The translations under genes were made by a program, and so were the position numbers. Below the pieces are notes generated by a model. The model saw nothing but the letters and a program-made list of their open reading frames with translations, made no database searches and was not told the origin of the DNA. This document shows positions 1,727-63,933 of a stretch of DNA of 64,000 nt, piece by piece (positions within the stretch are counted from its first letter, which is position 1; each line of letters begins with the position of its first letter). Origin of the DNA: a virus; the IMG/VR virus record IMGVR_UViG_3300029957_000006, positions 32,001-96,000 of that record; one strand, given 5' to 3'.

Positions 1727-3028
1727 TTATGAGAAATTTTCGCTATGTGTGTAATCAGTTGAATCTGTTGGAGCAGCATCAAATCCACCAAGACTTGCAT
1801 TACCTTGAACTCCAAGATCAAGTGGTGTATCTACTTGTTGTATGGTTTGTTGATCATCATTGTTTAAAGCATCTCCAATCATTGCACCCATCATATTACC
1901 ACCCATCATGGTTCCCATAAGAGTTGAATTAGTTACATAACCCCAAATCAGTGATTCAATGAATGAATCATCACCATTTGGATACTGTTGTTGAAGTTGT
2001 GAACGTTTTTCATAATATGATGAATCCTTTACTCGTTCAGTTTTAACTTCACGATGATTAAAGTAATCTCTTACATAGGTATCATCCTTTGTTATATGTA
2101 AGCCATTTGAATCTCTTTCAGTTATAGTTTTAACTGTTGGTGTGAATTCTTGAACTCGTTTCAAATACTGACGTTTAGCTATGTCACCATGCCAAATATG
2201 ATACAAGTCACCTTTAGCATATCCAATTTTACCTTTTACTACATTATAAAATTGCTTGGACCAAGCATTGATCTCATCCAGATTTTCAGTAAATGATTTT
2301 TGAATGCAAGAATGATCAAAGTGACCAGCAGCTGCATGTGCAATGACATGATCAGCACCACCAACCAAAGCACGATCATACAATGGAACAGCATCTAAAA
2401 CTTCACGTCTTGCACCCCATGCAAATCCGACATGACCATGCTTATCATAATTGGAATTACATGAAAGAATACCATGAGTATCAGCATGATTTGCTGAGAA
2501 GCTTCTCCACATTTTTGGATGTCTTGTTTTTGGATCACTTACATATTCATATTCATGTGTTACATCAAAGTCTGGTTCCATTTGATCTTGATCCAAATGG
2601 ATACAGTATTCAAATGGTTGAACTATGTTGTTTGTCTGTAAGGATTTAACACTATCAACCAACCAATTCTTATTGGTAAAGATGACATCTGCATCAACCC
2701 AGAACACATATTTGTATTTAGGGTCCAATCGTTTAACAATAAGATTCAATAGGGTTTCTTTATGCCAGAGTAAATTTTCTGTTTTTATTGTCGTAATATG
2801 CGGATTCTCAGGCCAATTAGGTAATAATTGTGGTTGAGCACCATCAATCAAGCACTCAATAATCTCATGATTAAGATGCTTGATTGAATCATAAAACTTG
2901 TTGAATGCCTTTAAACGATAAGGATTGTTTTGCGGATTGAAGTAGCAAGAAATGATTATTGCTTCTGAATGCGTTTTGTATTTATTTCCGAATAGGAAAT
3001 TGTTTTTGAAAGCGTCTATAAGTGTCAT
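1727..3028 (-). CDS. glycosyltransferase-like protein (GT-A fold) with low-complexity C-terminus
   Basis: YVFWVDADVIF DxD motif, GGAD, HIWHG. Confidence 0.6.
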   Translation of the reverse strand: MTLIDAFKNNFLFGNKYKTHSEAIIISCYFNPQNNPYRLKAFNKFYDSIKHLNHEIIECLIDGAQPQLLPNWPENPHITTIKTENLLWHKETLLNLIVKRLDPKYKYVFWVDADVIFTNKNWLVDSVKSLQTNNIVQPFEYCIHLDQDQMEPDFDVTHEYEYVSDPKTRHPKMWRSFSANHADTHGILSCNSNYDKHGHVGFAWGARREVLDAVPLYDRALVGGADHVIAHAAAGHFDHSCIQKSFTENLDEINAWSKQFYNVVKGKIGYAKGDLYHIWHGDIAKRQYLKRVQEFTPTVKTITERDSNGLHITKDDTYVRDYFNHREVKTERVKDSSYYEKRSQLQQQYPNGDDSFIESLIWGYVTNSTLMGTMMGGNMMGAMIGDALNNDDQQTIQQVDTPLDLGVQGNASLGGFDAAPTDSTDYTHSENFS

Positions 3029-3042
3029 TTGATTATTTTTTA

Positions 3043-3074
3043 CAAAGGTACAACATTAATGTGATCCATACAAG
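3043..3074 (-). promoter_or_regulatory. Bacteroidota-type promoter
   Basis: TACCTTTG at 3043-3050, TTG box 20 nt upstream. Confidence 0.7.
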
Positions 3075-3080
3075 ATATTT

Positions 3081-3512
3081 TTAACTATATCCCATCATTT
3101 TTTCTGAAGCTTCAATTACTTTATCATCATACCATTGATTAAAAAGTTTATTCAAAGCTGATTTATGCTTCAATATTTCATCATTTTCCACAATATAATT
3201 AGCTAAAAAATTGGGATTTATTTTTCCATAAACAACATGATTTACACTCCAATTTGTTTGTCCAAGTTGTACACTACATTTAGATAAAAAATCACTAAAA
3301 TTAGCTGCAAAAACTTTAACTCCATTTGCAAACCAATCATCATAAACCTTATTTAAACATGGTAAATGTCCAAATATAATTCTAAGATTAACTTTTAATA
3401 AGTTAAAATCCAATTTTGAATTATAAATAACATCAATGATTATAATATCATCAGCTAATGTGACTTTATAATTTCTGTTTAAAAAGTTACTAACTAATAA
3501 TTCATCACTCAT
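3081..3512 (-). CDS. hypothetical protein
   Basis: ORF in operon. Confidence 0.6.
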   Translation of the reverse strand: MSDELLVSNFLNRNYKVTLADDIIIIDVIYNSKLDFNLLKVNLRIIFGHLPCLNKVYDDWFANGVKVFAANFSDFLSKCSVQLGQTNWSVNHVVYGKINPNFLANYIVENDEILKHKSALNKLFNQWYDDKVIEASEKMMGYS

Positions 3513-5596: not shown

Positions 5597-7543
5597 TTAT
5601 AGTCTTATAAGTGTTAAATTAATATTCTTTCTTTCAACATCAACTGATTTAACTACGATCATTACTTCATCACCAAGTCTAATACGTTCACCTGTATTAA
5701 TTCCTTTCACACAATAGTTACTTGTATCAGCTGTGAAGGTATCACCACCAATTTCTGATAATCTCACAAGCCCTTCGCATTTGTTTTCTAGGATTTCAAC
5801 AAAGACACCATAATCAGCTACTGATGTAATGATTCCTTTGTAAACTTTTCCTACACGTTCTGACATGTAAATACACTGCATGTATTTGATTGATTCACGT
5901 TCAGCTTTTTGTGCTTTCTTTTCTCTTTCAGACAAGTATAAACATCTTCCTTCAAGTCGTTCCAATTTAGGTGTTGGTTTATTATCAAGATATCTTCCTA
6001 ATAATCTATGAACCATTACATCTGGATAACGTCTGATAGGACTTGTGAAGTGTGTGTAGTCTTTAAATCCAAGACCATAATGACCAATATTTGCTGTTCG
6101 ATAATCAGCTTTTTGCATTGTACGAACAACCAAGTTACTAATGATATCTTCTTCTGACGTTCCTTTAACATCAGTAAGAAGCTTATTAAGTGTAGTTGTA
6201 ATTTCAACTGGGTCTTGTGTTTTGATATCGTAACCAAATTGCTTAATGAAGTCTTTAAGGTTTTCCAATTTTTCTTCATTAGGTTTATCATGGGCACGAT
6301 TAACCATTGGCAATTTCTTGTCATTGATGAACTTTGCAACACGTCTATTTGCCAACAACATGTATTCTTCAATCAACTTGTTTGAATCTTTTCCAACCTT
6401 GAAAATAATTCCTGTTGGTTTATTGTTCTCATCCAATTTGAAACGAACTTCTTGTTTATCAAAAGAAATAGAACCCTTAGCTAATCGAGCTTTACGCATT
6501 CTCTTAGCTATTTGATCTAGGGTGATAATTGCATTTTTCAAATCAATTTCTTCTGCCAATGAAAAGAATGATTTTTTCACAAGTTCAGCTTCAATTATTT
6601 CTTGAGCTTCTTCATACGAATATCTATGATTTGAATTGATAACTGTTCTTCCAAACCATTCTTCAAGTACATGACCATTTTCATTAAGCTTAAATATTGC
6701 TGAGAAGCATAATTTATCTTCATGTGGTCTTAGACTACACAATCCATTTGAAAGTCGCTCTGGAAGCATAGGAACACATCTATCAACAAGATAAACGCTG
6801 GTTCCTCTCATGTATGCTTCTTTATCTAATGCAGTATCTGGACGCAAATAATGGCTTACATCGGCAATGTGAACACCAACAATATAAACTCGTTCCATTG
6901 TCTCACCATCAATAATGCTTTCAAACGATAACGCATCATCAAAGTCTTTTGCATCAACTGGATCAATGGTAAAGGTTAATACATCACGCATATCTCTACG
7001 CTTATCAATCTCTGATTGAGGGATGATATCTGAAATAGCTTCTGCTTCTGCAATCACATCACCATCAAAATCATAAGGAAGACCATATTCTTCTAGGATG
7101 CTATGTATTTCTGTTTCATGTTCACCAGCATCACCGATTACTCGAATGATCTCACCATTAGGATTTTTAGCATCATCTTTCCATTCAGTTAAACGAGCAA
7201 TAACCTTTTGTCCATCCTTAGCACCAAGTATCTTGGTGATTGGAATGAAGAAATCTATTGGTAATTTATTGCTATCTGGAACAAAGAAAGCATAACGTGG
7301 TGATACTTGTATCACACCAACAAATTCTGTCCTAAATCGTTCAAGTATTACTAATACTTCACCTTCAAGTGCTCGTCCATTACCTGGTATAACCTTGATC
7401 CTAACTGTATCTAAATGTAATGCTTTATTCGTATTGTTTTTGTGGATATAAATATCCTTTGGTAAATCATTACTTACCAAGTATGCTGAGCCACTAGCAT
7501 TCATTGCTATCTTCCCCTCTAAAATGTCTCCTATATTAATCAT
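5597..7543 (-). CDS. rnr: ribonuclease R
   Basis: TIDPVDAKDFDDA, HFTSPIRRYPD, C-terminal S1 domain. Confidence 0.95.
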   Translation of the reverse strand: MINIGDILEGKIAMNASGSAYLVSNDLPKDIYIHKNNTNKALHLDTVRIKVIPGNGRALEGEVLVILERFRTEFVGVIQVSPRYAFFVPDSNKLPIDFFIPITKILGAKDGQKVIARLTEWKDDAKNPNGEIIRVIGDAGEHETEIHSILEEYGLPYDFDGDVIAEAEAISDIIPQSEIDKRRDMRDVLTFTIDPVDAKDFDDALSFESIIDGETMERVYIVGVHIADVSHYLRPDTALDKEAYMRGTSVYLVDRCVPMLPERLSNGLCSLRPHEDKLCFSAIFKLNENGHVLEEWFGRTVINSNHRYSYEEAQEIIEAELVKKSFFSLAEEIDLKNAIITLDQIAKRMRKARLAKGSISFDKQEVRFKLDENNKPTGIIFKVGKDSNKLIEEYMLLANRRVAKFINDKKLPMVNRAHDKPNEEKLENLKDFIKQFGYDIKTQDPVEITTTLNKLLTDVKGTSEEDIISNLVVRTMQKADYRTANIGHYGLGFKDYTHFTSPIRRYPDVMVHRLLGRYLDNKPTPKLERLEGRCLYLSEREKKAQKAERESIKYMQCIYMSERVGKVYKGIITSVADYGVFVEILENKCEGLVRLSEIGGDTFTADTSNYCVKGINTGERIRLGDEVMIVVKSVDVERKNINLTLIRL

Positions 7544-7561
7544 ATTTTTGTTTTTATTTTA

Positions 7562-8527
7562 TTAAATTTCTTTCATTATAACGTAATCATCTCCATCTTC
7601 AAAATCATCTCCATCAATATTTTTCAATCCATTTGATTTACAGTATTCAGATACTGTTCCAATAATTGTAAACCCTTCTCTTTTGTAAAAAGATAATGGA
7701 GCACCACCTTTATCAACATAAGATAATATTTTACTACAACCAAAATCTTTAGCTTTTTCATATAAATGCATCATGATTTGCTTGCCAAATCCCATATTTC
7801 TTAATTCTGGTATTACACCAAGCCATCCAAGCCAAAGTTCATTTGTATCTTTAGCTTCATTCAGTGTATATAATCCACAAATACCAATTGGTTTATTACC
7901 TAATTTCACCAGCCATACTTCCCATAGTCTATCTGTTTTGCCATGAGTAGAAGGAATTACTTTACACCATACCAATGATGTTTGATAAAATACTAAATCG
8001 AAATCTTCAACTAAAGGTTTTAATATGGGACCAAACTCATAAATGTTTCGTGTTTGATTGAATGAGAGCTTATCATCAAGTATTAATTGCATGATAGTAA
8101 ATTCTTCATCTTCATAGATTAGATGTTTGACAATCTTCCAACCATATTTATCATGATATTTTGCAGCATCCAATGTATCCAGATAAATTATTTGATATCC
8201 TTTGGATAAGGCCCAATCAAATCTTAATTTTGACATTATTCTTCCATATCCATTACCACGATATTCTGGTTCTATCCATAATAATGTATTATATGGTGAA
8301 ATATCCATTCCATCTTCATCTCTTACTGTGTCAAATACCCCAGTACCAATTGGTTTATCACCATCTAATGCTATAAAACAAATAGAGTCTTTATCATGAA
8401 TCAACCATCTGTCAAATTCTGAATTTGCTTCTTCCAATGATATACCCCATCTTTTTAAAATGATAGATATAACATATCCTCGATAAAATTCAATTGCTTG
8501 TATTGTTTTGAAATTTGAATTGATCAT
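7562..8527 (-). CDS. tandem GNAT acetyltransferase
   Basis: Two acetyl-CoA motifs: PEYRGNGYG and PELRNMGFG. Confidence 0.8.
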   Translation of the reverse strand: MINSNFKTIQAIEFYRGYVISIILKRWGISLEEANSEFDRWLIHDKDSICFIALDGDKPIGTGVFDTVRDEDGMDISPYNTLLWIEPEYRGNGYGRIMSKLRFDWALSKGYQIIYLDTLDAAKYHDKYGWKIVKHLIYEDEEFTIMQLILDDKLSFNQTRNIYEFGPILKPLVEDFDLVFYQTSLVWCKVIPSTHGKTDRLWEVWLVKLGNKPIGICGLYTLNEAKDTNELWLGWLGVIPELRNMGFGKQIMMHLYEKAKDFGCSKILSYVDKGGAPLSFYKREGFTIIGTVSEYCKSNGLKNIDGDDFEDGDDYVIMKEI

Positions 8528-51233: not shown

Positions 51234-51629
51234 TTACATGTTAAATTTCATTATAGATACATATCCATCATCCTCAATAACTAGTTCTTGTCTTAGTTTT
51301 AATCTTTCCCAAAGAGCTTTACTAAACTTATTCATTGATATGTTGGAACAAGAAATAGCTTTAGTATGCTTGTTTTCAATTAGAAAAGAAAGAGCTTCAA
51401 TAAGAAAATCTTCACCAAGATTTTTACCAATGAAATCTTTTGTTAGACCATAACCCATGATTGATGAAATCCCATCTGAATCGTTTGGATTTGAATAAAA
51501 GAATCCTATTTTTTCACCAGTAATTCTATTTGAGAATTCTAGGATATAAACATCAAACCAATCACCCATTTTTAAGAATGATAATGATGATCTACATTCT
51601 CCAATAGAAATGTCAAACAAATTATTCAT
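51234..51629 (-). CDS. putative GNAT-fold protein
   Basis: FIGKNLG, S.ALWERL. Confidence 0.45.
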   Translation of the reverse strand: MNNLFDISIGECRSSLSFLKMGDWFDVYILEFSNRITGEKIGFFYSNPNDSDGISSIMGYGLTKDFIGKNLGEDFLIEALSFLIENKHTKAISCSNISMNKFSKALWERLKLRQELVIEDDGYVSIMKFNM

Positions 51630-51754
51630 GAGCTGCTCACAGGATTCGAACCTGTACTACTTCACCTAACGCCAGTTGCAGCTGACTCGGTTCTCTTTCC
51701 GCTGGGATTTGCGGTGTTCTAGCCAATCGCACTAACCAACTGTGCTACCTCCCC
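51630..51754 (-). other. chimeric or degenerate tRNA-like element
   Basis: D-arm GCAC-AGTTGGTTA-GTGC and T-arm ACAGG-TTCGAAT-CCTGT present; acceptor halves do not pair; enlarged middle. Confidence 0.5.
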
Positions 51755-51876
51755 AATTTAGTTGTGAGATTAATCCAGAATCACTGGTCACAACCACCAT
51801 TTCCGCTGTAATGCACCCCAAGGTCTTATTCCAAAGACAAACACAAGTGTTCGGGCCAATACGGTTGAATTTCCAG

Positions 51877-51949
51877 TGGTAACGGCTAGAATCGAACTAG
51901 CGACACATAGATTTTCAGTCTATTGCTCTACCAACTGAGCTACATCACC
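51877..51949 (-). tRNA. tRNA-Phe(GAA)
   Basis: Canonical cloverleaf; ATAGA-CTGAAAA-TCTAT. Confidence 0.95.
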
Positions 51950-51952
51950 ATT

Positions 51953-52870
51953 TGCTGACCATTTACATCAGCCCCAGAAGTCTCTGTTTTTTTAGTTTAT
52001 TGCTACTAATGGGATGGCTACCTCCACCATAAACTATTCCAAGATGTATCTTAGAACGTATCACCGCTGAAACAATACGAGGGCCATGGACAGCCCGAAT
52101 ACACTAGGTTTACTATACTCTCTCATCTTTTTTCTACTCTTGAGAGTTCCATTCCGCTAAGACTGGATTTGTTTCATATCACTCCGTAAAAGCTACGTGA
52201 ATACTACTATTATTATAAACCTTGTTTTTTTTGATTGCAGATGCTCCGAACATCTTTACGTCTCATTGCTGAGTTAACGTTTGTTTTACAATCGTAGTTG
52301 GCTAATCGGTGTATTTCCCCGAAAATTTAAAGAGTGTGAAAACTTACAATCACTCTGCCAATTTTAAAACAGATTCATGGTGGCTTATGAGCAGTCGCAT
52401 TGCTTTTCGTGGAGTATTTGAAGTCTTGCCTCATAACTTTGTTCCACAGTAGTTATACACCATGTCTCCCCTTACGTTATCCTTTCGTGCTATCACGCAC
52501 AGCCAACTTAACGGCAAGTTCCCTTATCAGTTTGTTTTATTTCAGATTCATGTTCATATTGATGTGGACTAAACATCCAAGAACAGATTGTGGCCTCCGT
52601 ACAACGTATTTTTTAGGGCCGAGAGTCTACCTCGTTTGACCAACCCCTTAGCTTCCGCTAATATTTTACGCCACTGGGAACGCATGATATTCGTGCTTAT
52701 TGCTAAGCTTTACCTACCTCAGTACTCAGAATATGAATTAACATATCCCTGTCTGATAATCATGCTGTCGCTATTCGAATTACCGAGAGATCGCTACCTT
52801 AGGACCGTTATAGTTTCTAATTGCAGAAATGAATCTTTATTATTTTTAATTGCTAAAATGTCAATGAACT
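51953..52870 (-). ncRNA. candidate large structured ncRNA (~900 nt) in tRNA array
   Basis: No minus-strand ORF, visibly more GC-rich, many hairpins with GNRA loops, bounded by tRNA-like elements; ends approximate. Confidence 0.7.
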
Positions 52871-52872
52871 AG

Positions 52873-52942
52873 TGGGGGATGATGGGTTCTAACCACCGAC
52901 CTGTATTACTACTGCTCTAACCAAATTCTGAGCTAATCCCCC
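52873..52942 (-). other. tRNA-like element lacking an anticodon
   Basis: Acceptor GGGGGAT/ATCCCCC-A, D-arm GCTC/GAGC, T-arm; anticodon arm reduced to GTA-GTAA-TAC. Confidence 0.7.
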
Positions 52943-52954
52943 ATATTTACTTTG

Positions 52955-52986
52955 CAAAGTTACTAACTAAATTACGCTTTGTCAAG
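52955..52986 (-). promoter_or_regulatory. Bacteroidota-type promoter upstream of tRNA-like/ncRNA unit
   Basis: TTG-N20-TAACTTTG. Confidence 0.7.
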
Positions 52987-53260
52987 TATTATTTTTTAAT
53001 ATTTTTGAGGAACCAAATGCTCCTCTAACAGAGCACAAAGGTACAAAAGATTTTTGAATCTACCAAATTTATTTTTAATCCAAATAGATTTCAAAATAAC
53101 TGATACAAAAATCATTAAACCAAACACCTCTATCGTAATAAAAAGCTAGAAGTTCTGGATCGGTGGCTTCTTCCACTCGTTTCACCATCTTATTGGCGAT
53201 CTTTTGAAGGATTTTCTTTTTCATGAAACAAAGGTACTAAATAATTTTCGAATAAACAAA

Positions 53261-56312: not shown

Positions 56313-56424
56313 CAGTGGTGCTAGGAATCGAACCTAGAATTCTGGCGTGAGAGGCTAGTTTAATTGCTGAACGTAATCTTAACAGATTAGCTTTTACATT
56401 GTGATACCATTTCACTACACCACT
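56313..56424 (-). tRNA. tRNA-Glu(CTC)-like with 41-nt insertion
   Basis: Perfect acceptor, D and T arms; insert between D-arm and anticodon stem. Confidence 0.6.
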
Positions 56425-56426
56425 AG

Positions 56427-56499
56427 TTGAGAGAGCGAGTTTCGAACTCGACTTTTCCACCCGTCTAGGTGGCGTACTAACCAATTATACTATCTCCCA
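56427..56499 (-). tRNA. tRNA-like gene, undetermined anticodon (6-nt loop)
   Basis: Cloverleaf with CCACC-TAGACG-GGTGG. Confidence 0.5.
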
Positions 56500-56980: not shown

Positions 56981-57037
56981 ATTTAATCCGATTACGTTGA
57001 TTTTTTACTGCTCGGATTGACACAACAAAAACACTTG

Positions 57038-57109
57038 TAAGATGTACGAGACTCGAACTCGTGTTTGCCCCTTCAACGGGGCTGTCCTAGGCCACTAGAC
57101 GAACATCTC
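57038..57109 (-). tRNA. Glu/Gln-type tRNA body with 6-nt anticodon loop
   Basis: GCCCC-GTTGAA-GGGGC; other arms canonical. Confidence 0.6.
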
Positions 57110-57810: not shown

Positions 57811-58452
57811 TTATTTTCTTCCTTTAATCCATCCTTGTTCTATAAACGAATTAATATATTCTTTTTTTATTTTTTTATGTTCACCTTCTTTCGTAATCCA
57901 ACAGGTATCATATTGAGAATTTTTATTTCCATTATGTTTACCTTTATGTGATTCAGACATCAATTCAATTGTTTCAATACTATGATTTTTCCCTGTCATG
58001 GTATCATACTTAATTTTACCATTTTTATGAGCAATTTTCACATTCTCCAACAAAGTTTTTTTTATTCTATTTCCAAATAATTTATCCTTTTTAAATCTTA
58101 TAGCGAAATTTTTAGGACCATCTGATGTAATAAATTTATGTTTATGTTCTTCATTAACAAATCCACCATCTCCACCTTCCTTCAAATTCATACATAAATC
58201 TTCACCAATCAACTCTTTTGTCACTAATTCCTTCTCTCTGTTTTTCAATAATTCTCTTGTTGGTAACCACTCAAGTATTTCCTTAGTATGATTCTTTTTA
58301 CCATGATAGTTAATACTAAACCAAAGTCGTTTTCCACTACCAAAATAACCATCATTCAAGTTATCTGTTGAGTGCATTCCTATGTAATATCTATTTGTTA
58401 CATTACATGTAATTTTATAGATGTAATGATATTTTCTTTCTTGTCTTGCCAT
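57811..58452 (-). CDS. Seg-like GIY-YIG homing endonuclease in tRNA array
   Basis: YIYKITCNVTNRYYIGMHST, YFGSG, NLKEGGDGG, NUMOD3 HSIETIELMS. Confidence 0.88.
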   Translation of the reverse strand: MARQERKYHYIYKITCNVTNRYYIGMHSTDNLNDGYFGSGKRLWFSINYHGKKNHTKEILEWLPTRELLKNREKELVTKELIGEDLCMNLKEGGDGGFVNEEHKHKFITSDGPKNFAIRFKKDKLFGNRIKKTLLENVKIAHKNGKIKYDTMTGKNHSIETIELMSESHKGKHNGNKNSQYDTCWITKEGEHKKIKKEYINSFIEQGWIKGRK

Positions 58453-63805: not shown

Positions 63806-63933
63806 AGCAAAAGGTAGGGATCGAACCTACATTACAGTCAACCAGACATCCTGATGAGAACCATCAGGTAGAGGATTGATGACTATTCCTCCGTTTAAAA
63901 AGCTAGCGTGTATACCACTTTCACCACCTCTGC
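63806..63933 (-). other. tRNA-like gene with large structured insertion in anticodon region
   Basis: Acceptor, Leu-type D-arm and T-arm intact; 128 nt total with two extra hairpins. Confidence 0.6.

Follow-up and report, generated by a model that had tools for sequence, protein, structure and literature searches.

A non-coding RNA locus beside tRNA-Phe

We analysed a 64,000-nucleotide (nt) stretch of viral DNA, hereafter the window, which comprises bases 32001-96000 of a 124,454-base IMG/VR virus record whose completeness is estimated at 35%, and we describe here a non-coding RNA of about 0.9 kilobases (kb) encoded on its minus strand next to a phenylalanine transfer RNA (tRNA) gene. The minus strand, called the gene strand below, carries nearly all of the open reading frames (ORFs) of the window and all 19 of its called tRNA genes. 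Between tRNA-Phe and position 52870, no gene-strand ORF exceeds 38 amino acids (aa), and the guanine plus cytosine (G+C) content is 0.37-0.44 over positions 51550-52899, compared with 0.25-0.33 in the flanking coding DNA. An earlier interpretation of the window from its letters alone (the sequence-only reading) had singled out this interval as a long, GC-richer gap in the minus-strand gene map, and both properties were borne out. The source runs that hold DNA of the window are rhizosphere, soil, and groundwater metagenomes. The locus is made up as follows:

51950-52845, minus strand: whole non-coding RNA of about 0.9 kb, with an approximate 5' limit and a 3' limit set by the first base of tRNA-Phe
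52537-52841, minus strand: conserved 5' core domain, about 300 nt, present in all six members of the RNA family
52365-52543, minus strand: middle domain, flanked in the window by the direct repeat AUGAAUCUG; present in the window RNA, L022, and L038 and absent from L005 and L024 (homologues described below)
51950-52364, minus strand: variable 3' domain, shared with L022 only
51876-51949, minus strand: tRNA-Phe(GAA), 72.3 bits, directly abutting the 3' end of the RNA

Homologues and comparative support for structure

Five homologues were found in viral and metagenome contigs (L005, L011, L022, L024, and L038). L005 came from a neighbour-gene search, in which relatives of an 804-aa protein were recovered from six loci, one of them carrying the RNA within the DNA fetched. 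L011 was found with core patterns in viral contigs and L038 with a middle-domain pattern, while core patterns applied to metagenomes matched 13 stretches, of which two (L022 and L024) were true members and the other 11, in DNA of 54-71% G+C, were chance matches. The core of about 300 nt is common to all six members, with a mean column identity of 72% (alignment A3) and full-length nhmmer matches. Further pattern scans of viral sequences returned no match, one match to a real 23S ribosomal RNA (rRNA), and one chance match (L012). Two pattern scans of prokaryote genomes gave 0 and 12 stretches; the 12, which lie in Streptomyces, other Actinomycetota, Methylobacterium, and similar high-GC records, were set aside as chance from these taxa and from a rough estimate of about 17 chance matches. 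Among the cultured phages in INPHARED, the region matched through tRNA-Phe only.

A core structure of 68 base pairs was assembled from RNAalifold predictions and from reading of the alignment and was tested on alignment A3; the six sequences are related and few, and the structure was partly derived from the same sequences. Pairing was possible in 92.7% of the alignment cells (shuffle mean, 84.3%), and compensatory changes occurred in 21 of the 68 pairs (shuffle mean, 10.2), with none of 500 shuffles reaching either observed value. When the 3' partners were slid by 1-3 columns, 35-48% of cells were paired and three to six pairs were compensated. The structures predicted by RNAalifold contained 19 compensated pairs out of 70 with five sequences and 15 out of 64 with six. 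In the middle domain, nine of 31 pairs showed compensatory changes. The folding energy gave a z of -1.54, and none of 20 shuffles folded as well, although this is weak evidence by itself. We regard the RNA family as almost certainly real. The hairpin-rich non-coding RNA proposed in the sequence-only reading is thus upheld by covariation in both the core and the middle domain, through the homologue collection and covariation analysis that the same reading had put forward as a check.

All six stems listed in that reading are present where it placed them, and four of them are backed by comparison. GCUUA-GCAA-UAAGC (52695-52708) shows a U-A to C-G change in L024 and L011; UUAGC-GGAA-GCUAA (52648-52661) is replaced by UGAC-GAAA-GUCA in L022 and L038 and by UUGAC-UUCG-GUCAA in a soil contig about 96% alike; AGAGUG/CACUCU (52331-52356) appears as AAGGUG/CACCUU in L005; and UUCUAAGA-UACA-UCUUGGAA (52037-52056) appears as UUGAAC-UACA-GUUCAA in L022. 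For CUCA-GCAA-UGAG and AACUU...AAGUU, no comparative support was found. The main elements of the core, apart from those related to rRNA, are the following:

52829-52836, minus strand: 5' strand of the long-range pairing P1, AGAUUCAU, pairing with 52544-52551
52544-52551, minus strand: 3' strand of P1, AUGAAUCU, pairing with 52829-52836
52767-52797, minus strand: long hairpin, GUAGCGA...UAGCGAC flanking UCGG-UAAU-UCGA (52775-52786), kept in all six members
52682-52765, minus strand: subdomain closed by GCAUGAU x AUCAUGC, with three inner helices and a GCAA hairpin
52592-52628, minus strand: 37-nt block ending in GGCC (52592-52595), the 3' strand of a second long-range pairing, Px; near-invariant in five of the six members, with L038 differing at three bases

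P1 consists of eight pairs and is kept in all six members (97.9% of cells paired), with one compensatory change, from A-U to G-C in L005. Its 5' strand had been suggested to pair with two downstream copies of AUGAAUCU; the pairing with the copy at 52544 holds in every member, whereas the copy at 52371-52378 is part of the closing helix of the middle domain. The helix GCAUGAU x AUCAUGC has seven pairs, four of them with compensatory changes, and all of its cells are paired. In L011, the long hairpin at 52767-52797 shows a G.U to U.G change and a GAAA loop, and its outer helix would contain A.G pairs. An 11-nt GNRA receptor at CCUAAG was also considered and was dropped, as conservation of the core does not extend to its partner UAUGG.

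Outside the core, the middle and 3' domains are accessory and differ from phage to phage, and in the short forms, L005 and L024, the RNA measures about 450-650 nt. In a groundwater contig (run X23), positions 52098-52231 are deleted exactly, and in the soil contig of about 96% likeness (run X21), positions 52095-52225 are replaced. The middle domain was also considered as an RNase P RNA, from a likeness seen by eye; no model supported this, and the short forms do without the domain.

A segment of 23S rRNA in the core

The decisive feature of the core, absent from the sequence-only reading, is an exact copy of part of 23S rRNA. The copy and the elements associated with it are as follows:

52791-52815, minus strand: exact copy of 23S 1912-1936 (helix 69 loop and 3' strand, into helix 70), 25 of 25 bases identical to Escherichia coli rrlB, expectation value (E) 5e-9
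52803-52806, minus strand: 5' strand of Px, GGUC (23S 1921-1924), pairing with GGCC at 52592-52595
52689-52696, minus strand: GCACGAAU, 8 of 8 bases identical to 23S 1964-1971 and colinear with the 25-mer, with E of 0.4 when taken alone
52666-52673, minus strand: UGGCGUAA, 8 of 8 bases identical to 23S 1971-1978, in colinear order

The copy is shared by the family. L005, L024, L011, and L022 keep 17-20 identical bases of the 18-21 aligned over 23S 1916-1936, L038 keeps 16 of 18, and the soil relative from run X21 keeps 22 of the 25 in a row. A profile of the family matched 23S at the 1912-1936 site only (E 1.2e-4). Beside the copy, no 23S continuation beyond 1936 was found. Short-word BLAST of the 124-kb record with E. 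coli 16S, 23S, and 5S rRNA and a second 23S gave no other rRNA-like piece above chance; with the whole E. coli 23S it returned only 1912-1936, and hence no copy of 1051-1108 (the GTPase centre). The bacterial large subunit rRNA model RF02541 did not match anywhere in the record, while 13 of 14 control genomes were positive. The RNA is not an rRNA gene.

In INPHARED, the exact 25-mer occurred only in records with real 23S rRNA. One of these, MZ092003.1, was rejected as a carrier of the RNA, as the record holds full 23S and 5S genes; this locus (L060; positions 80647-85671), in a sequence deposited as the complete genome of Paenibacillus phage Pd_22F, is probably host DNA.

We take 23S 1906-1924 to be helix 69, which forms bridge B2a, with the next bases leading into helices 70 and 71; a GGCCG/CGGUC stem agrees with the sequence of 1906-1924. 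In the phage RNAs, GGUC of the copy probably pairs with GGCC about 210 nt downstream to form Px, in which all 24 cells are paired in the six members (G-C, G-C, U.G, and C-G). These are the pairs given by complementarity within 23S 1906-1924, that is, by the helix 69 stem, and L038 changes both sides of Px, from C-G to U-A. A different register, treated below, also fits the change in L038, so we consider Px likely but not certain from the available alignment.

Other parts of the core may echo the same region of 23S rRNA. GCACGAAU recurs in L022, L024, L005, and L038. GCGUA of UGGCGUAA pairs with UACGU (52604-52608) in helix 9 of the core, with compensatory changes in three pairs; in 23S rRNA, GGCGU at 1972-1976 is the exact complement of ACGCC at 1829-1833, a pairing that we take to be helix 67. 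In L005, the 3' strand of Px, ACGGAGGCCGUAACU, is identical to 23S 1901-1915 at 14 of 15 positions. On these matches, the run UACGUU-GU-ACGGA-GGCC may be read as the 5' strand of helix 67, a deleted helix 68, and the 5' strand of helix 69.

The hexamer AGGUAG is enriched, with four copies in 0.9 kb of the RNA strand (52018-52023, 52627-52632, 52714-52719, and 52794-52799), compared with 26 occurrences on both strands of the 64-kb window; one of the four falls within the 23S-like segment.

Searches for known RNA families

At the gathering score, Rfam 15 gave no family other than tRNA over the whole window. Even at E<=10, no family matched inside the RNA of the window or of L022, L038, and L024, and therefore the RNA is not GOLLD, ROOL, RNase P, transfer-messenger RNA (tmRNA), or an intron. 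These were the models with which the sequence-only reading had proposed to decide between a known class and a new one, and the option of a new class stands. No YrlA match was found in the region. No phage RNA mimicking rRNA or helix 69 was found in full-text literature listings and abstracts, with subscription journals and supplements outside this scope. The family is apparently undescribed, as judged from Rfam 15 and from these listings and abstracts.

A wider set of phage RNAs with the 18-mer

A viral scan with the 18-mer of the copy that is shared by the family returned 24 loci. Two are real 23S rRNA (L003 and L053), two are known members (L011, and L010, which is the contig of L005), and 20 are new and lie outside rRNA. 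Nine of the 20 share the architecture of the window RNA, having P1 and/or Px, and range from 31 to 60% G+C; they fall into L039, L045, and L055 (Group A), L040 and L049, L041 alone, and L051, L056, and L059. At the gathering score, no Rfam family lies over any of the nine.

In seven of the nine, the 5' strand of a P1 ends 17-29 nt ahead of the core; five of these were detected by script and two (L059 and L051) by reading, whereas neither script nor reading found a P1 in L045 and L055. The P1 sequences differ widely (UUAAAGGG, UAGAUUGUUUU, AGAUGAAUA, AUCAAUCUCGA, GACCUCGA, and ACGAGC). In all nine, GGUC could pair with a distal G(G/A)CC, and the GACC form in L041, L049, and L051 turns the U.G pair into U-A. 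L051, L056, and L059 (48-60% G+C) repeat the GGUAGCGA-hairpin-UAGCGA layout of the window RNA, and body elements in common with the family were seen in L039 (...CCCUAAAAAAU...) and L041 (...CCCAGUG.CGUA...). The Group A loci match 23S at 22 of 22 positions over 1912-1933 and at 12 of 13 over 1975-1987, and two of the three (L045 and L055) also match at 10 of 10 over 1965-1974. Six of the nine have same-strand tRNA genes as neighbours, and a seventh, L040, directly follows a tRNA. Since the set was picked by the 18-mer, only P1, Px, the body helices, and the genomic context count as independent evidence. Judged from these sequence features, the window RNA belongs to a wider superfamily of phage RNAs built on the 23S copy.

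Two of these loci hold further elements. In the GC-rich phage of L051, the helix-69-like RNA is preceded, about 500 nt upstream, by a phage-encoded tmRNA (positions 7175-7595; 127 bits). In L041, a 391-kb phage contig, ACAGCAA occurs five times within 2440-3260, after P1, with each later copy near a T-arm-like GGUUCGA; the repeat looks like a repeated processing or assembly signal.

The other 11 of the 24 loci carry the 18-mer in other settings. In L047 (1609-1626), L057, and L048, the stop codon of a 180-aa ORF marks the start of a 25/26 copy of 23S 1911-1936, and a terminator-like hairpin comes after the copy, a 3' untranslated region setting. The remaining eight are viral contigs with a 23S 18- to 22-mer (L043, at 2276-2293, L044, L052, and L054; L042, L046, L050, and L058). 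In L043, the 18-mer lies between two opposite-strand genes; in L042 and L058, its flanks could close a small hairpin (CACAC...GUGUG); and L044, L052, L054, L046, and L050 are grouped by flanking sequence only.

Transcription, RNA ends, and neighbouring genes

Upstream of the RNA lie three further features:

52955-52963, minus strand: promoter -7 box GTAACTTTG (TAnnTTTG type), upstream of the tRNA-like unit, the RNA, and tRNA-Phe
52870-52941, minus strand: optional tRNA-like element with acceptor, D, and T arms, in which a 3-base-pair GUAA-capped stub replaces the anticodon arm
53075-53224, minus strand: 49-aa ORF (MKKKILQKIAN...YLD), just upstream of the RNA promoter and syntenic in four loci

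The promoter proposed at 52955 in the sequence-only reading was confirmed by the enrichment of its motif and by the strand bias of exact copies. Allowing up to one mismatch, GTACCTTTG occurs 33 times in the window against 10.7 expected, a count reached in none of 100 shuffles; the 14 exact copies are all on the gene strand, several of them just upstream of ORFs. The same box precedes the RNA in L005, L024, and L011. We take TAnnTTTG to be the consensus of the -7 element of Bacteroidota promoters, and because of this resemblance the host of the phage probably belongs to the Bacteroidota.

That reading had also placed tRNA-like units at both ends of the RNA. At the 3' end this is a true tRNA, tRNA-Phe, which abuts the RNA likewise in L005 and L024; L038 has a tRNA-like unit there, so that the 3' end abuts a tRNA or tRNA-like unit in all four loci in which that end lies on the contig. 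The 5' unit did not stand as a part of the family: the soil contig of run X21 skips positions 52871-52948 exactly, L005 and L024 are likewise without it, and it is an optional insertion outside the RNA family. Neither ARAGORN nor Rfam at E<=10 called 52870-52941 as a tRNA, and the unit probably serves tRNA enzymes as a handle. A tRNA immediately precedes P1 in L056 and L040. Between the RNA and tRNA-Phe no terminator was found; GGGCUGUCCAUGGCCC was considered as one and rejected, as L022 keeps the hairpin without a U tail. The sole run labelled RNA-Seq (X24), annotated as probably DNA, covers the tRNA-Phe area only, through contigs about 90% alike.

Copies of the 49-aa ORF lie in L005 (8842-8991), L024 (5101-5250), and L038 (1665-1814), with 39-47% identity to the window copy (alignment A5). 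It has no PHROG match and is a possible partner of the RNA. Downstream of the RNA, where tRNA-Phe, further RNA, and ORFs lie, no ribosomal-protein families were found.

The tRNA cluster holds several unusual elements of its own. After tRNA-Phe, a 245-nt non-coding spacer (51630-51875) contains a tRNA-shaped unit (51639-51747, minus strand) with good D and T arms and about 62 nt inserted in place of the anticodon arm (sub-threshold Rfam tRNA score of 21.6 bits), and similar units with inserts follow the RNAs of L024 and L038. ARAGORN gave 2-base 'anticodons' for aberrant tRNA genes at 56426-56499 and 57037-57109, and Rfam tRNA matches of 112 nt (56313-56424) and 128 nt (63806-63933) necessarily carry inserts. 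A 213-aa ORF within the cluster (57811-58452, minus strand) has weak NUMOD3 and GIY-YIG (SegE-like) matches and probably encodes a homing endonuclease.

A possible off-ribosome mimic of the helix 67-helix 69-helix 71 junction

On the sequence evidence above, we tentatively favour, at somewhat less than even chances, the explanation that the RNA is an off-ribosome mimic of the junction of helices 67, 69, and 71 of 23S rRNA, processed from a tRNA transcript and binding or titrating a partner of that junction. The RNA would be transcribed from the Bacteroidota-type promoter on the gene strand together with tRNA-Phe and would be released by tRNA enzymes: RNase P would generate its 3' end and, in loci with a preceding tRNA or tRNA-like unit, tRNA 3' processing would generate its 5' end. 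The processed RNA would be stable, its ends protected in P1, which would close the core of about 300 nt around the copy of 1912-1936 and the echoes of 1964-1978. Pairing of GGUC with the distal GGCC would rebuild the helix 69 stem pairs, GCGUA x UACGU would take the place of helix 67, and a small hairpin that of helix 71. The core would then be a circularly permuted miniature of this junction of 23S domain IV, with its ends in the helix 69 loop and P1 closing it there, and would bind or titrate whatever normally recognises the junction: the 30S subunit, a tRNA, or a factor for translation or ribosome maintenance.

The likeness to 23S domain IV (helices 67-71, E. coli about 1829-1978) consists of blocks of 25/25, 8/8, and 8/8 bases in the same order, the rebuilt helix 69 stem pairs, a helix at the helix 67 place, a hairpin at the helix 71 place, and the 14/15 match of L005 to 1901-1915. 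The window RNA differs from it in having a permuted strand order, with the 3' strand first, in lacking helix 68 and the partner strand of helix 70, and in having large insertions and a loop tip that continues into P1. In ribosomal-protein operon leaders, a non-ribosomal RNA reproduces a piece of rRNA and is bound off the ribosome by a molecule that binds the ribosome. The window RNA would resemble them in this proposed principle only: the leaders are short, cis-acting, and located upstream of the gene of the bound protein, whereas the window RNA is a stand-alone, tRNA-linked phage RNA of 0.45-1 kb in its various forms, with no ribosomal-protein gene beside it. To our knowledge, no protein binds 23S 1912-1936 alone. 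The optional 5' unit is comparable to YrlA-type tRNA-like modules in being tRNA-shaped without a decoding arm, and differs from them in lying outside the conserved RNA.

Several observations weigh against the mimic explanation. The tip of the 'helix 69 loop' is not free and runs on into P1, and for this reason the contacts of the real loop tip could not be copied. The partner strand of helix 70 is missing, and the equivalence with helix 71 was drawn by eye only. RNAalifold on the six sequences prefers another register for Px, UUCC x GGAG, which also accommodates the G-to-A change in L038. The 23S-like blocks beyond the 25-mer are weak singly (E 0.4, 0.4, 0.006, 0.027, and 0.1) and were not seen by the profile search, and because that search matched the 25-mer site only, the extended colinearity is weakly supported. 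By its sequence, GGCC in Group A resembles 23S 1983-1986 as much as 1906-1909, so that the permuted reading is not the sole one. The presence of the 18-mer in the wider set proves nothing, the loci having been selected by it, and a whole-length MAFFT alignment of 13 RNAs (A6) failed in the 3' half; the superfamily pairings were consequently read locus by locus and not counted in columns. As to context, no ribosome-related gene was seen adjoining the RNA, with five nearby ORFs tested and giving no informative family match, and no RNA dataset is listed among the runs that hold the stretch.

GOLLD and ROOL are large folded RNAs of phages and prophages, often located beside tRNA islands, and GOLLD bound ribosomes in pull-downs, according to the passages of a preprint on these RNAs (10.1101/2024.12.08.627333). 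An ornate self-assembling or scaffold RNA of this sort, in which the 23S-like strand is a structural module derived from a captured rRNA fragment and mimics nothing, is an explanation that we consider unlikely, yet one that deserves serious weight. The window RNA shares with GOLLD and ROOL this genomic habit (10.1101/2024.12.08.627333) as well as a large size, a phage origin, adjacency to tRNA genes (19 in the window), and a modular make-up of conserved and variable domains; it has many GNRA-capped hairpins, and no protein partner is evident. It differs in its helices, and neither Rfam model matches it at E<=10 in the four members searched. Its conserved part is the 5' portion of about 300 nt, with the 3' part variable or missing, the reverse of GOLLD, for which the preprint passages describe a conserved 3' domain and a variable 5' part (10.1101/2024.12.08.627333). 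An exact rRNA copy is not reported for GOLLD or ROOL in those passages (10.1101/2024.12.08.627333). The 23S-like bases are among the best conserved of the RNA and recur in very different phages, which is more than would be expected of a neutral relic.

A ribozyme or a cofactor for the processing of phage tRNAs (RNase P-like, ligase-like, or self-circularising) appears quite improbable, even though the size and conservation of the RNA are typical of ribozymes, P1 brings its ends together, and its neighbours are always tRNAs or tRNA-like units, often aberrant ones; four members searched at E<=10 gave no match to the models of RNase P, tmRNA, or group I or group II introns, the short forms L005 and L024 lack the whole middle domain, and a catalytic motif was not identified. 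Still less probable is a relic of mobile rDNA, either a degenerate rRNA intron with a piece of exon or a DNA-level target or decoy of a homing endonuclease, with the RNA fold incidental. The 25-mer covers a stretch of 23S that we assume to be a hot spot of introns and homing endonucleases, a GIY-YIG/NUMOD3-like ORF lies in the tRNA cluster (57811-58452), and some of the other viral loci carry the 18-mer in settings that do not look like an RNA. Against such a relic stand the absence of an intron model match at E<=10, the lack of a 3' exon continuation, and the part that the segment takes in covarying RNA pairings; moreover, about 300 nt are conserved across phages with compensatory changes throughout, and a decaying relic would differ. 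We give hardly any credence to a protein gene on the opposite strand or to the region being no more than a long leader or spacer in the tRNA operon. Antisense stretches of 59-119 aa without stop codons do exist in all six members, but insertions and deletions of lengths not divisible by three put them in different frames in different members within conserved DNA, and the longest stretch in L022 lies in another domain; the genes and tRNAs here are on the other strand, and the substitutions in stems are compensatory. The antisense gene was rejected on its unconserved frames.

Implications for phage biology

The finding goes beyond the sequence-only reading, since an rRNA copy underlies the RNA and its relatives occur in very different phages. 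Extending the mimic explanation, phages of many hosts might make free-standing permuted miniatures of the helix 67-helix 69-helix 71 junction, which is central to the intersubunit bridges, to capture a partner of this site during infection, as one branch of a strategy of imitating rRNA centres from tRNA islands; this broader proposal is more speculative than the mimic explanation itself, and we hold it with correspondingly greater reserve. Under such capture, the partner might be a defence enzyme directed against the site, a tRNA, the 30S subunit, or a factor for recycling, splitting, or rRNA modification.

Whatever its function, the RNA gives RNA databases a new class of structured RNA with good support, may be a circularly permuted rRNA sub-domain that occurs in nature, and is a marker for a group of uncultured large phages of soil and freshwater. 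If the mimic explanation is true, rRNA decoys would join tRNAs and proteins as the means by which phages manipulate translation or ribosome-directed defences, and the decoy would copy the most universally conserved part of the subunit interface. The large 'ornate' phage RNAs would thereby gain a first concrete and testable functional handle, an rRNA element with known ligands, and the RNA could offer a route to the cell factors that recognise helix 69 and its junction.

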